From: Candidatus Omnitrophota bacterium | GTDB taxonomy: Bacteria > Omnitrophota > Gorgyraeia > Zapsychrales > JANLHA01 | Direction: 5' to 3' | Length of the DNA stretch: 32,000 nucleotides | NCBI GenBank assembly: GCA_963662715.1 | Contig: OY759724.1 | Span: 900,001-932,000 of the forward strand | Part shown: piece after piece, positions 2,196 to 5,655 of the stretch | Layout of the letters: every line of letters begins with the position of its first letter | Numbering within the stretch: the stretch's first letter is position 1 | Notes under the pieces: generated by a model | Told to the model about the DNA's origin: nothing | The model's input: only the letters and a program-made list of their open reading frames with translations | Database searches by the model: none | Translations under genes and position numbers: made by a program

Positions 2196-2903
2196 TTATT
2201 CTATTTTTGCCGATTTCTCCAAATTATGCTTCATGCATAACAATCGAACATTCTTGCTCGACAAACTTGTCCCTCCTTTTGAAAAAGGCAAATCGTGATC
2301 AAAATGCAAGTTCTTGCTTGAGCCACAAAGCACACATCGCCCCTTATCTCTCTTCCAAACCTCTTTCTTGACCTCTGAGGGAATCAATCTCGAATCTGGG
2401 AGATTTATATCTGAAACTTTTAAGTCTTCTTTTCCTATAGGCTCTTCAGATAACCTGAGGATAAATCGAAAGACCTTGCGCCGCCCATCATTGATATACT
2501 TATAATCAACCAAATGAAAAATACCTTTTAAAGACCATATCCCGGCCAAAATCTTCTCGTAAACTTTAACAAGTTCCGGCTTTCTTTTATTAGCCTTAAA
2601 TTCCTCAACAGCTTTCTTAAACTTTCCATTCTGAGTCAATTTGCCTGAAGGCAGTTTATCGGGTTGATCTTCACTTTTAGGGTCATGTGTATAGCTTCTT
2701 CTTGACACATCGTGTCCTTCATATTCAATAGTAATGCCATTTTCATGAATTTTATCCTTATAAGGGGCATTGGACCTCTGCGACATCAATATAACCGAAT
2801 AAGATGGATTTAGGCGATAGTTCATGCCTCTCTGTAATGTCTGCACATTCTCCTGATCACACATTTCTCTATAACTTAAAATATCATCTTGTATCTTTTT
2901 CAT
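2196..2903 (-). CDS. HNH endonuclease with an uncharacterised ~165-aa N-terminal domain
   Basis: The C-terminus CVLCGSSKNLHFDHDLPFSKGGTSLSSKNVRLLCMKHNLEKS fits the C..CG...DH..P...GG...N...LC..HN..K HNH signature. The start is 2 nt after the stop of the upstream DUF2075 gene. Confidence 0.85.
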   Translation of the reverse strand: MKKIQDDILSYREMCDQENVQTLQRGMNYRLNPSYSVILMSQRSNAPYKDKIHENGITIEYEGHDVSRRSYTHDPKSEDQPDKLPSGKLTQNGKFKKAVEEFKANKRKPELVKVYEKILAGIWSLKGIFHLVDYKYINDGRRKVFRFILRLSEEPIGKEDLKVSDINLPDSRLIPSEVKKEVWKRDKGRCVLCGSSKNLHFDHDLPFSKGGTSLSSKNVRLLCMKHNLEKSAKIE

Positions 2904-2905
2904 AT

Positions 2906-5311
2906 CTACCCAACAATGTCCAAGAATTCTGCAACAATCTTAAATTCACCATCCTGGCTTTCATTTAAAATAATTTTGTCAAAAGCACTATTTAATGGCT
3001 CCAATATAATCTCTTCGTGCTTCCATTGACCATCATCACCGAATACTTTTCGACTGGAGTAACGTTTAATAGTATATCTCCCGGTATCGGGATCAGCATC
3101 CTGCCGCAGTTCAACTAATACAATTTTCCCATTCCTCGATCCAACCACATTCCCTTGAAATACACAATAAGACCCATCTTTGATTCTCGGATCCATGGAC
3201 AAACCAACTGCTTTAATAACAAACATATTGCGATTAAGTCGGCGGCCTGTATCAACCTTCATCCACCCCAAGGGGGAGACTTCCTGCCCTTCACCGAATA
3301 GTCCACAGGCTGCGGCCAAGGAATAAACTGGCAAATATTCTTTAAATCGCAAAGATTCCTCAATTTGGCTCACAACTTCCACTTTATTATCCTCAATTTG
3401 TTGAGCAACTTCGGAAAACATCAAAGAATCCTCAGGCACCATGCCTTCAATTCTTGACTTAAAAAATCGTTCTGTGTCTTTATTCATGAAATAAACATAA
3501 CACCCTTTCATCCCTCTCGATAAAAGTACGCGATAAGTATTCTTTACCAGATCCACAAACTTATCTTTGCTACGCTTTACTACTTCATCCGCAGAGTTCT
3601 CCTTTATACCTATCCACGTTTGCTTATCAAAATCATAAATAACATCTTCACCAAAAATGACCCCAACATAATCAAATTCAAAACCTTGCGCCGTATACAC
3701 ACATCCGACTTGGTCAATACCGGCCGGATCATAGGCCCATAAAGAAGCCTTGGGAATACCTGGAGCCAATTTTCTGGCATCCGGCTTCGCATCCCATGGA
3801 CGCACATAATCCCCGATCACAACATCATCTATAAGCGTCCCGTCCTGCCTGGGATTAGACCATTTCCAACAAAATCCAGCAGTTACCCGTCCTGTATGCC
3901 CCTCTTGCACCTTATTACGGATGGCAGTTTCTAATGTCTCGGGGGAAGAAAAGATTTTAAAATCAAACTCCTCATGCTGATCCCAGATAACATTAGCTGT
4001 TCTTTTTATACCCAGAGTATTATTGATCCAATTTACAAAAGCTTCGGAACCATTACACCTAAATTGAGCGTCTAACTCATATTCAACAACATTCGCTTTC
4101 TTCTCAAGAGCATATTGCTTAATATATTCTGTTGAACCAACCTCATTAGGTCTTACAACCTGATTGTCATCTATAAAAAATACAGAAACTTTAGACGCAT
4201 TCATAATCTCTTCGATTTGGCTTAAAGAAGACCTATTTTCTTTTTTTGTAAATCGGCTATTGCTGGTCGTCCGGATTCTATGTGCTTCATCAGCAATCAG
4301 CACGTCAACGGTATTATTGTCTGCATTCATGTAGCTATTAAAGTATTTGAATTGGACTGCTCCCCTTGTCCCAATAATCTTCCTGAGCGTTTCTGTAAAA
4401 GCCTTAGATCCCGTTGCATAATGGGCGTTATATCCCTTTAAAAGCAAATCAGCCATTAAGTTTATTGCAATAACAGATTTACCTGTTCCAGGGCCCCCCT
4501 TAATAATGATGGCCGCTTTCTTTTTGTCATGGAAGCCTTTGCGGGCAAAAGTTAGGACCGTATCGTAAACAATCAATTGTTCATCTAAGAGGACATATTC
4601 CTTCTTGTTTTTTATGATGTTGCCAACGTGATCCATCAGCTTCTTAGAAGGACGATACCTGCTCTTTTCAACCTTATTTAAAACATCAATGCCTTGTCCA
4701 CTCTTAAGCCTCATCTTCAAATAATCGATCATTCTGTCAACATCATCTTCCGTGAACAAAGGAAATCGCTCAAGGCTTGGAGTAAATTTATCGCTAAAAA
4801 TAACATCCTGCTCATCATAAGGATAATTGTGCAAATAAGTGCAGGCATTAAGATTGACGGGATTAGGGCCATCATAAAATGCTGTGTGCGTGTCTTGGAG
4901 ATACAATTTGTATTGACCTACCTGCACGGAAGGATGCAAGACATCTCTTTTCCTTCCATTTAGCCATGTTGTGACTTCATTGTCACCATCTGAGGCTTCA
5001 CACTTTTCCCATTGCTTGAGCTCGATAATAACAGCATTGTCTTGGCGTTCCGTATCTTGGCCACAAATCATACAGTCCAGTCGTCTGGATGTCATCGGTA
5101 ATTGATATTCTAATATGACGCCATGATCTAACAATTGAGCATGTTCAAAGACTTGAGAAATTGAGCGGAGAGAATTTCGCCAGGAGTTAACCTCTCCTGG
5201 CGAAGGATTAAATCTGTAGTAGAGGAAAAAGGCTTGCTTTAATTTTTCGGCGATTTGGTTTTGGACAGTATCTTCTATAAATTGTTTGGATGTTCCTGCG
5301 TATAATCTCAT
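2906..5311 (-). CDS. DUF2075-family protein: N-terminal PD-(D/E)xK-like module, P-loop SF1-like helicase/ATPase core and C-terminal UmuD/LexA-like S24 peptidase domain
   Basis: 801 aa. The N-terminus MRLYAGTSKQFIEDTV...ILEYQLPMTSRRLDCMICG...VIIELKQW is the characteristic DUF2075 start with a D...ELK nuclease-like motif. It has Walker A IIKGGPGTGKSV, Walker B VLIADEAHRI and a C-terminal helicase motif YTAQGFEFDYVGVI. The last ~142 aa align to UmuD (details in findings). The start overlaps the mazG-like stop (ATGA). Confidence 0.85.
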   Translation of the reverse strand: MRLYAGTSKQFIEDTVQNQIAEKLKQAFFLYYRFNPSPGEVNSWRNSLRSISQVFEHAQLLDHGVILEYQLPMTSRRLDCMICGQDTERQDNAVIIELKQWEKCEASDGDNEVTTWLNGRKRDVLHPSVQVGQYKLYLQDTHTAFYDGPNPVNLNACTYLHNYPYDEQDVIFSDKFTPSLERFPLFTEDDVDRMIDYLKMRLKSGQGIDVLNKVEKSRYRPSKKLMDHVGNIIKNKKEYVLLDEQLIVYDTVLTFARKGFHDKKKAAIIIKGGPGTGKSVIAINLMADLLLKGYNAHYATGSKAFTETLRKIIGTRGAVQFKYFNSYMNADNNTVDVLIADEAHRIRTTSNSRFTKKENRSSLSQIEEIMNASKVSVFFIDDNQVVRPNEVGSTEYIKQYALEKKANVVEYELDAQFRCNGSEAFVNWINNTLGIKRTANVIWDQHEEFDFKIFSSPETLETAIRNKVQEGHTGRVTAGFCWKWSNPRQDGTLIDDVVIGDYVRPWDAKPDARKLAPGIPKASLWAYDPAGIDQVGCVYTAQGFEFDYVGVIFGEDVIYDFDKQTWIGIKENSADEVVKRSKDKFVDLVKNTYRVLLSRGMKGCYVYFMNKDTERFFKSRIEGMVPEDSLMFSEVAQQIEDNKVEVVSQIEESLRFKEYLPVYSLAAACGLFGEGQEVSPLGWMKVDTGRRLNRNMFVIKAVGLSMDPRIKDGSYCVFQGNVVGSRNGKIVLVELRQDADPDTGRYTIKRYSSRKVFGDDGQWKHEEIILEPLNSAFDKIILNESQDGEFKIVAEFLDIVG

Positions 5312-5655
5312 AACTTATCGTATTTTGTATGTTTACCTTTGGCCTTCTCAACCGGATATTTCTGAGCATTTTTCTTTAATTTAGAAAGGATCGCTTCTGA
5401 CAAATCGATGCTAAGATTATCTGCGAGTTCAAATAAATACATAGCAACATCAGCAAGCTCTTCTGAAATTTCATCTTTGCATGCTTGCCCATGGGCCTCG
5501 ACTTCGGATGGTGATTTCCATTGGAAATGCTCCAAAACCTCAGCTGCTTCCAGCATCATTGATAAAGCCATATCCTTATGATTGTGAAATTGTTTCCAAT
5601 CTCGCTCATCACGAAACTTCTTAATTTCATCGATGATCGTTTTTATTTCACTCAT
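5308..5655 (-). CDS. MazG-like (all-alpha) nucleoside triphosphate pyrophosphohydrolase
   Basis: 115 aa. IKKFRDERDWKQFHNHKDMALSMMLEAAEVLEHFQW...ISEELADVAMYLFELA shows the ExxE ... EExxD metal-binding pattern and the small size typical of MazG/DCTPP1-like enzymes. Confidence 0.85.
   Translation of the reverse strand: MSEIKTIIDEIKKFRDERDWKQFHNHKDMALSMMLEAAEVLEHFQWKSPSEVEAHGQACKDEISEELADVAMYLFELADNLSIDLSEAILSKLKKNAQKYPVEKAKGKHTKYDKL

Follow-up and report, generated by a model that had tools for sequence, protein, structure and literature searches.

Nhi of Staphylococcus epidermidis (SERP2475) keeps its nuclease autoinhibited in the full-length protein, and truncation has been proposed to take part in its mechanism (10.1101/776245); Nhi-like is a single-gene defence (Millman et al. 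2022, 10.1101/2022.05.11.491447) that phages evade by inactivating a phage DNA methylase (10.1101/2022.08.27.505566). TagI, ScoA3IV/Sco5333 and TbiR51I are SRA-HNH modification-dependent restriction endonucleases (PMC6212794, PMC4333417), the modification-dependent endonuclease McaZI adjoins a DUF2075 NTPase (PMC6765204), and a MazG-like domain has been proposed as the effector targeting nucleoside triphosphates (NTPs) in PUA-sensor systems (10.64898/2026.01.15.699771). Here we analyse a 32,000-nucleotide (nt) stretch of a Candidatus Omnitrophota genome (contig OY759724.1, positions 900,001 to 932,000; hereafter the window), in which three adjacent genes encode a MazG-like protein (gene 1), a DUF2075 protein (gene 2) and an HNH protein (gene 3). 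Because the trio recurs in other genomes, keeps tight junctions there and matches a cassette elsewhere at the nucleotide level, we regard it as a real, recurrent and mobile unit, and we read it, with a probability of roughly 0.55, as an anti-phage cassette of three co-transcribed genes that spreads horizontally and here lies in a low-GC island beside a tRNA-Met gene.

Layout of the cassette

5308..5655, minus strand: gene 1, MazG-like, an open reading frame (ORF) of 115 amino acids (aa)
5308..5311, minus strand: gene 1/gene 2 junction, an ATGA common to the MazG TGA stop and the DUF2075 ATG
2906..5311, minus strand: gene 2, DUF2075, an ORF of 801 aa
2903..2908, minus strand: gene 2/gene 3 junction, TAG stop (2906-2908), 2 nt (AT) and ATG start (2903-2901)
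2196..2903, minus strand: gene 3, HNH, an ORF of 235 aa
2195..5677, minus strand: complete mobile cassette (three genes and a 22-nt leader), as delimited by the block of blastn homology
5824..5852, minus strand: promoter-like site and candidate operon promoter (TTGACC, 17 nt, TG-GATAAT), by consensus match only

A preliminary description of this DNA had pointed to the close packing of the three minus-strand genes, and the coordinates that it gave for the ATGA overlap and for the TAG, 2 nt, ATG junction proved correct, although it overlooked the low-GC island beside tRNA-Met in which they lie. Its family names also hold, MazG-like and DUF2075 by Pfam and HNH by an intact motif with Pfam scores below the cut-offs, but two domains had been missed: an S24 tail on gene 2 and an SRA domain on gene 3. 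By itself the packing is not beyond chance, because 4-nt gene overlaps are common (a second one lies at 15985-15988 of the same window); it is raised above chance by the conservation of the two junctions in other genomes (16 of 41 and 19 of 25 loci, respectively; see below). No terminator-like site was found between the three cassette genes. The promoter-like site lies ~170 nt 5' of the MazG ATG, and promoter-like sites over the whole region show no significant excess (25 observed versus 18.3 +/- 4.7 expected).

Predicted activities of the three proteins

Gene 1 matches the MazG-like family of Pfam (PF12643, E = 4.2e-19, 69 bits with a cut-off of 27), and its matches among PDB sequences are dCTP pyrophosphatase 1 (DCTPP1; 6sqw, 2a3q) and the archaeal pyrophosphatase 4qgp (5.7e-20). 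The alignment with DCTPP1, an enzyme of deoxycytidine triphosphate (dCTP), spans residues 13-113 of 115 and brings the ExxE...ExxD motifs into register. Judged by these matches, gene 1 is predicted to be a DCTPP1-like, all-alpha NTP pyrophosphohydrolase whose active site is intact; across 81 MazG sequences encoded beside DUF2075 genes, each of the metal-binding residues E36, E39, E66 and D69 is conserved in 98% or more, which indicates an active enzyme under selection. Mammalian DCTPP1 prefers 5-modified dCTP.

Gene 2 is divided into three parts:

4622..5311, minus strand: putative PD-(D/E)xK-motif N-terminal domain (aa 1-230), with motif E68, D79, E97-x-K99
3488..4519, minus strand: DUF2075/Schlafen group-3 helicase-ATPase core of superfamily 1B (SF1B; aa 265-608), PF09848
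2909..3349, minus strand: LexA/UmuD-like S24 peptidase domain (aa ~655-801), PF00717

The core matches PF09848 (DUF2075/SLFN-g3_helicase) over profile positions 1-352 of 354 (1.2e-89, 301.5 bits), and a Walker A motif (GGPGTGKS) and a DEAH motif are present in all 92 of 92 gene 2 homologues, while a PDB sequence search with the DUF2075 profile gave no match. The AlphaFold2 (AF2) model of gene 2 has a predicted local distance difference test score (pLDDT) of 65.8, its second RecA-like lobe being poorly modelled, and its best Foldseek matches in the PDB are SLFN11 (7zel, 8.5e-7), SLFN14, T4 Dda and RecD2. Since the full-length model returned helicase and AAA matches only, this search is no test of an N-terminal nuclease or S24 fold. 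In the N-terminal domain, E68, D79 and E97-x-K99 are invariant among close homologues and present in 88-89 of 92 diverged ones, and the AF2 model (pLDDT ~80-90 here) has an alpha-beta-beta-beta-alpha topology compatible with a nuclease. We therefore call the domain a putative PD-(D/E)xK nuclease, an assignment at the level of the motif only, because no nuclease profile or structure was matched to the domain.

The S24 match of gene 2 scores 29 bits (cut-off 23.3) and rises to 65-70 bits in the related proteins of loci L124, L127 and L160; the Ser705 (GxSM) and Lys749 dyad is invariant in 20 of 20 sequences. At 35 residues upstream lies AAC-G (aa 667-670; consensus AAA-G), and AAA-G or AAC-G occupies this site in about 15 of the 20 S24-bearing homologues, with A-T or A-S in the rest. 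Parts of gene 2 are matched by the PADLOC models Nhi (PDLC02372; aa 236-471, profile positions 178-377 of 470, 6.8e-15), AbiO and PDC-S41, and the protein has a putative Nhi-like architecture with an added S24 tail. Relatives were found on viral contigs 5 times in 2.9 million, so a phage-borne origin of gene 2 is unsupported. In one Verrucomicrobiae locus (L056, 7928-8395) the S24 part has an ORF of its own (155 aa), which overlaps the end of a DUF2075 ORF of 659 aa; either a frameshift accounts for this or the S24 domain is naturally split.

Gene 3 comprises two predicted domains:

2439..2903, minus strand: SRA-like (SET and RING associated) modified-cytosine reader domain (aa 1 to ~155), by predicted structure and Foldseek
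2196..2387, minus strand: HNH nuclease domain (aa 173-235 plus the stop codon), by motif and sub-cut-off Pfam matches

Pfam found nothing in aa 1 to ~155 and a comparison of gene 3 with PDB sequences gave marginal HNH-motif matches only. When its AF2 model (m171f0ab11083, pLDDT 69.6) was searched against the PDB with Foldseek, all of the top 50 matches were SRA domains or SRA-containing modification-dependent endonucleases, the best being the SUVH5 SRA domain (5e-5, probability 1.00, target-normalised TM score 0.59-0.63), with UHRF1, AspBHI, ScoMcrA and AbaSI among the others. The HNH_5 and HNH families of Pfam score 19.5 and 17.3 bits, below their cut-offs, and C190, C193, H200, D202, H203, N218, C223, H226 and N227 are invariant in 24 homologues; from these residues the HNH motif (beta-beta-alpha-metal, with Cys/His zinc ligands) appears intact. 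The model thus predicts an SRA-like reader fused to an HNH domain, an architecture known from type IV restriction enzymes that stand alone, and window positions 1-7000 contain no methyltransferase. Homologues that stand alone, at 75% identity, occur in genomes of the candidate phyla radiation (CPR; L083-L088) with no DUF2075, MazG or methyltransferase gene nearby. The family counts at least 7,909 proteins at E <= 1e-5 in a search that admitted no more than 8,000 candidates, the best 120 matches being 70-100% identical to the window protein across phyla; its members are named 'HNH endonuclease' or 'restriction endonuclease' in public sources and probably form a very large, strongly conserved set of type IV restriction enzymes.

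Recurrence of the pair and the trio

Loci in other genomes were collected in two sets, each consisting of the best 80 matches to one of the window's own proteins, so that the percentages derived from them are not population frequencies and are biased towards relatives of this cassette. The set seeded with gene 2 holds 80 loci from bacteria and archaea (47-93% identity), and that seeded with gene 3 holds 80 metagenomic loci (65-92% identity), of which 60 were evaluable. Mining of DUF2075 neighbourhoods, as the preliminary description had proposed, placed a MazG-like gene directly beside DUF2075 in 48 of the 80 gene 2-seeded loci: directly upstream on the same strand in 41, with the 4-nt overlap of the ATGA type in 16 of these, and directly downstream in the other 7. 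About 7 further loci have a MazG-like gene adjacent on the opposite strand or within ~2 kb. An SRA-HNH gene was present in 4 of the 80, from which gene 3 had been taken for a lineage-specific passenger; the reciprocal, gene 3-seeded census overturned that view, because MazG and/or DUF2075 adjoin the SRA-HNH gene in 27 of the 60 evaluable loci, the next commonest neighbour family reaching 7 of 52.

The junctions recur along with the genes. Spacing between genes 2 and 3 is identical to that of the window in L001-L003, and at 19 of 25 same-strand junctions the DUF2075 stop and the HNH start are -8 to +8 nt apart. Gene order may change to HNH-MazG-DUF2075 with all three genes still adjacent (L094, L095, L155, L165). 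The DUF2075 proteins linked to a trio in the gene 3-seeded set are only 25-58% identical to that of the window; they form 12 clusters at 65% identity and occupy 5 of 7 clusters at 50%, that is, five deeply diverged groups. In L124 a GIY-YIG N-terminus replaces the PD-(D/E)xK domain, and in both L124 and L127 the S24 tail is kept and MazG and SRA-HNH genes still flank the DUF2075 gene. A four-gene version of the cassette also exists, as a RadC-like JAB gene (PF04002, 1e-43) is inserted between DUF2075 and SRA-HNH in L111 (556-1266), L157 (5281-5973) and L161 (2528-3226). Outside this genome, then, the trio is found in many diverged lineages with its tight junctions conserved; the MazG and DUF2075 pair is the most widely conserved unit and the HNH gene a frequent but optional third member.

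Where MazG-DUF2075 pairs have a tightly linked extra gene, it often encodes another modification-dependent nuclease or reader. Such genes include a TagI-like protein of HNH_2 type (L016; match 6ghs), a VcaM4I-like EVE-HNH protein (L046; 6yex, 1.3e-90), a HIT-PLD-helicase-DUF3427 protein (L033) and an SNF2 helicase with a NOV_C (DUF3883) domain (L034); when the SRA-HNH family and the third gene of L016 were compared profile to profile, they shared nothing but the HNH motif. On a Priestia aryabhattai plasmid (L170, NZ_CP083270.1, 1954-5860) the order is MutT-type NUDIX, DUF3578/MrcB_N protein (1.5e-51), 'nucleotide pyrophosphohydrolase' and DUF2075, the McrB-N (DUF3578) and MazG genes overlapping by 4 nt; a NUDIX gene thus heads a MazG-DUF2075 locus here too. 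Next to this plasmid locus lie a restriction endonuclease gene at one end and genes for type I restriction-modification at the other. Other genes in third position encode NACHT, SNF2-NOV_C, C5 methylase and HD hydrolase proteins.

Further arrangements were seen at single loci. MazG is paired directly with an HNH-domain protein of unmatched N-terminal fold, with no DUF2075, in L096, and in L143 a 367-aa protein with no Pfam match (4893-5996) stands in the place of DUF2075, 12 nt from MazG and 4 nt from SRA-HNH. A Hymenobacter canadensis plasmid (L169, NZ_CP114769.1, 1904-5890) carries two tandem DUF2075 genes, with no MazG annotated, downstream of a site-specific DNA methyltransferase gene, a DUF4747 gene and a hypothetical gene. 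Directly after DUF2075, with no gap, L022 has a 114-aa protein lacking a Pfam match (5109-5453); a 1423-aa NACHT/STAND ATPase is tightly linked downstream in L078 (7933-12204); and L038, with no MazG nearby, has downstream an HD-domain, YfbR-like 5'-deoxynucleotidase, an enzyme of nucleotide metabolism (7898-8458).

Mobility and genomic surroundings

By blastn, window positions 2195-5677 are 89.7% identical to L001 9630-13120 and L002 1386-4876. The homology ends 1 nt past the HNH stop and 22 nt upstream of the MazG ATG, and the flanks of the L001 copy, which hold type IV secretion genes, an integrase, AbiEii and HipA, are unrelated to those of the window; the three genes moved between genomes as one 3.5-kb piece.

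The island in which they lie ends at a tRNA gene outside the cassette:

6792..6868, minus strand: tRNA-Met, island boundary (ARAGORN; Rfam 62.3 bits)

GC content steps at this gene from ~0.35-0.43 (window 1-6791) to ~0.44-0.52 (6869-16000), and housekeeping genes such as enolase begin beyond it. To the left the low-GC island continues beyond the window, and a search of window 1-7000 found no direct repeat of the 3' end of tRNA-Met by which a distal island end could be recognised. Window positions 6646-6837, comprising the 3' part of tRNA-Met and ~146 nt downstream, contain three TGTGCCA repeats and a terminator-like hairpin; partial copies at 75-84% identity occur in L001 at 9120-9301, 18106-18247 and 21282-21388, one of them ~350 nt upstream of the MazG gene, and no intact tRNA was found in L001. 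The copies resemble the remains of attachment sites left by elements that use tRNA-Met for integration and that may have been stacked in tandem.

Downstream of the cassette, on the minus strand (844-2097), lie two genes that abut with no gap (1294/1293), one for a dCTP-deaminase-like protein (267 aa, PF22769, 8.5e-13) whose C-terminus, judged by eye, apparently forms two hydrophobic helices, and one for a NUDIX hydrolase (149 aa, PF00293, 2e-18; PADLOC candidate PDC-S07, 9e-12). We considered both as members of the cassette and rejected this, because neither stands beside the trio elsewhere and because the nucleotide homology with L001 and L002 ends at 2195; the one NUDIX match near a trio in another genome is weak and on the opposite strand (L122). 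The two genes could form a separate nucleotide-pool module. Between the cassette and tRNA-Met, on the plus strand (6092-6466), a small predicted lipoprotein with a weak PEGA-domain match has an N-terminus, MKFILLFTILLVLSGC, that resembles a lipobox signal; the ORF next to it (5755-6069) matches no Pfam family.

Proposed function

The cassette probably defends the cell against viruses with modified cytosines in their DNA. We regard it as a composite defence operon directed at modified DNA, for which we infer the enzyme substrates, the cooperation of the proteins and the role of S24. In DNA entering the cell, the SRA domain would flip out and recognise a modified cytosine, of the 5-methylcytosine (5mC) or 5-hydroxymethylcytosine (5hmC) type, close to which the HNH domain would cut. 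The DUF2075 helicase-nuclease could then load on the DNA ends so produced, or on intermediates of phage replication, and degrade them as Nhi does. The MazG enzyme would hydrolyse dCTP or 5-modified dCTP, either starving a phage whose DNA is built from modified dCTP or keeping modified nucleotides from degraded phage DNA out of the host chromosome and so preventing self-restriction. The S24 tail, with its Ser/Lys dyad and upstream Ala/Cys-Gly, may be a self-cleaving switch that frees the nuclease-helicase from autoinhibition, possibly stimulated by filaments of RecA on single-stranded DNA (ssDNA); such a switch would agree with the autoinhibition reported for full-length Nhi and with the part that truncation may have in its mechanism.

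The preliminary reading of the module is partly supported by these comparisons. Co-occurrence of the genes holds outside this genome, where its absence was to have refuted the module, and the idea that MazG may clear a deoxynucleoside triphosphate (dNTP), possibly a modified one, fits the dCTP pyrophosphatase DCTPP1/RS21-C6 as its closest solved relative. The proposed division of labour, with the HNH protein as cutter and DUF2075 as sensor or motor, is too simple, because the HNH protein has an SRA-like sensor of its own and also occurs alone, and because the DUF2075 protein carries a conserved nuclease motif and a LexA-like S24 domain.

Several observations weigh against the cassette reading. 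None of the three parts needs the others, because each occurs alone: about 25 of the 80 gene 2-seeded loci have no nearby MazG, the SRA-HNH gene is present in only four (three near-identical loci and L070), and 33 of the 60 evaluable gene 3-seeded loci lack both partners, all in sets whose frequencies are tilted towards relatives of this cassette. The PADLOC Nhi and AbiO models cover just the ATPase part of gene 2, and about a quarter of the S24-bearing homologues have no (A/C)-G cleavage site. The SRA call rests on a model of moderate confidence, with no SRA domain detected by sequence profiles, and every enzymatic step is a proposal drawn from comparisons of sequences and models.

An alternative interpretation, to which we assign a distinct though minority chance, is that two independent systems are stacked in one transcription unit, an Nhi-like MazG and DUF2075 pair and an autonomous SRA-HNH enzyme, which travel together through the clustering and compaction of defence genes on mobile islands and do not cooperate biochemically. 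The solitary SRA-HNH homologues of CPR genomes, the 33 SRA-HNH loci without either partner, the 76 of 80 DUF2075-seeded loci without an HNH gene, the unrelated genes that fill the third position elsewhere (NACHT, SNF2-NOV_C, C5 methylase, HD hydrolase), and the fact that the SRA-HNH enzymes TagI, ScoA3IV and TbiR51I work as single proteins (PMC6212794, PMC4333417) are all consistent with this interpretation. However, clustering on islands does not predict that stop and start should lie within 8 nt on the same strand at 19 of 25 loci, nor that the association should recur with five deeply diverged DUF2075 groups, including the GIY-YIG form of L124, or keep the genes adjacent when their order changes. 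It also fails to predict that MazG/DUF2075 should be by far the commonest neighbour (27 loci versus 7) or that the third gene should repeatedly be swapped for other modification-dependent nucleases.

It is also conceivable, but we consider it unlikely, that MazG is a regulator or antitoxin and the DUF2075 protein a toxic abortive-infection effector, triggered by a modified dNTP or an alarmone whose level MazG would keep low in uninfected cells, by analogy with E. coli, where hydrolysis of (p)ppGpp by MazG holds the toxicity of MazF in check. A small upstream gene whose stop overlaps the start of the large one, as at 16 of 41 loci, is a layout typical of antitoxin-toxin pairs, and full-length Nhi, being autoinhibited, is in need of a trigger; the strong conservation of the catalytic residues also suits this idea and argues that MazG hydrolysis itself matters. 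Against it, roughly one in three close DUF2075 relatives lacks a nearby MazG, and Nhi and Nhi-like function as single genes, which argues that the helicase-nuclease has no intrinsic need of an antidote. Moreover, MazG follows DUF2075 or is encoded on the other strand at about 10 loci, pairs with HNH-type proteins without DUF2075 in L096 and L143, and has dCTP pyrophosphatases, not (p)ppGpp hydrolases, as its closest solved relatives.

Finally, a housekeeping DNA-repair or SOS module, in which an SOS-linked helicase-nuclease is joined by a house-cleaning NTP pyrophosphatase and the HNH gene is an unrelated passenger, is very improbable: the S24 Ser/Lys dyad is a hallmark of SOS proteins, DCTPP1-type enzymes are classic house-cleaning enzymes and three loci have the RadC-like JAB gene between DUF2075 and HNH, but the cassette sits in a low-GC island next to a tRNA gene, moved as a discrete 3.5-kb unit, has its closest copy among type IV secretion genes, an integrase, AbiEii and HipA, is spread patchily over bacteria and archaea with 62-70% identity between phyla, has restriction-type neighbour genes and matches the PADLOC defence models AbiO, Nhi and PDC-S41.

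Beyond the anti-phage cassette of this window, we tentatively suggest that MazG plus DUF2075, with or without S24, plus an interchangeable modification-dependent nuclease (SRA-HNH, TagI-like, EVE-HNH, DUF3427 or McrB-N proteins) may constitute a widespread, unnamed type IV-like restriction system of several components in bacteria and archaea. This more doubtful generalisation includes the propositions that modification-directed degradation of DNA is linked in mechanism to the destruction or sanitation of the (modified) dCTP pool, and that the LexA-like autoprotease tail links activation to the sensing of RecA-ssDNA or DNA damage. If it were true, a prokaryotic Schlafen-type helicase would act in a nucleotide-pool-linked immune pathway. 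DUF2075 proteins are prokaryotic relatives of the human Schlafen helicases, most of the close relatives of gene 2 have a dCTP-pyrophosphatase-like partner with intact catalytic residues, they are often neighbours of modified-DNA readers, and many carry a LexA-type tail; these features offer handles on how the helicase-nuclease is triggered, how host DNA is spared and whether nucleotide-pool enzymes and restriction act jointly. For the gene 3 family, annotated only as 'HNH endonuclease', it is relevant that type IV enzymes are useful as reagents for mapping modified cytosines.

Comparison with known systems

The components of the cassette are of known kinds, and their combination was not found described in the literature searched; this applies to the MazG-DUF2075 pairing, to its recurrent coupling to modification-dependent nucleases and to the S24 tail. 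In a full-text literature search, DUF2075 with MazG, MazG with Nhi, and prokaryotic Schlafen with MazG occurred together in no paper.

Gene 2 resembles Nhi and Nhi-like in that a nuclease of PD-(D/E)xK type, putative in gene 2, precedes a DUF2075 SF1B helicase in one polypeptide, in a defence context, and the sensitisation of Nhi-like by phage DNA methylation agrees with the modified-DNA theme of the cassette relatives. However, Nhi and Nhi-like are described as single genes, whereas proteins of the gene 2 type are paired with MazG in ~60-70% of related loci and often lie beside a modification-dependent nuclease; the papers on Nhi and Nhi-like do not mention an S24 tail (10.1101/776245, 10.1101/2022.05.11.491447); and the PADLOC Nhi model covers only aa 236-471, so that the likeness to Nhi is one of predicted architecture. 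The core of gene 2 is also shared with SLFN11 and SLFN14 (PF09848, 1e-89), its top structural matches, and the Schlafen group 3 proteins likewise join an immune or stress nuclease to an SF1 helicase. Their N-terminus has a tRNA endonuclease fold in place of the PD-(D/E)xK motif, and they are eukaryotic proteins with neither a MazG partner nor an S24 domain.

With the TagI family, gene 3 shares a predicted N-terminal SRA-like reader, a C-terminal HNH domain, a length of ~230-310 aa and the lack of a cognate methyltransferase. It differs in that sequence comparison detects no similarity to TagI or any chain of solved structure, its SRA domain appearing in the predicted structure only, and in an HNH domain of the PF01844/PF14279 type, whereas that of the TagI-like protein of L016 is of HNH_2 type. 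Moreover, the gene 3 family often stands in an operon with MazG-DUF2075, a link that was not found described for TagI-type enzymes.

DCTPP1/RS21-C6 is the best match of gene 1 among solved structures and has the same ExxE...ExxD metal motif, but it is a mammalian enzyme, whereas gene 1 is prokaryotic, lies in an operon and is the partner of a predicted defence helicase. PUA-sensor systems with calcineurin-CE or MazG-like effectors similarly combine a modified-base reader with a predicted NTP-destroying enzyme (10.64898/2026.01.15.699771). In the cassette, by contrast, the predicted reader is an SRA domain fused to its own nuclease, a HAD phosphatase is absent, and the constant partner of MazG among the cassette relatives is the DUF2075 nuclease-helicase.

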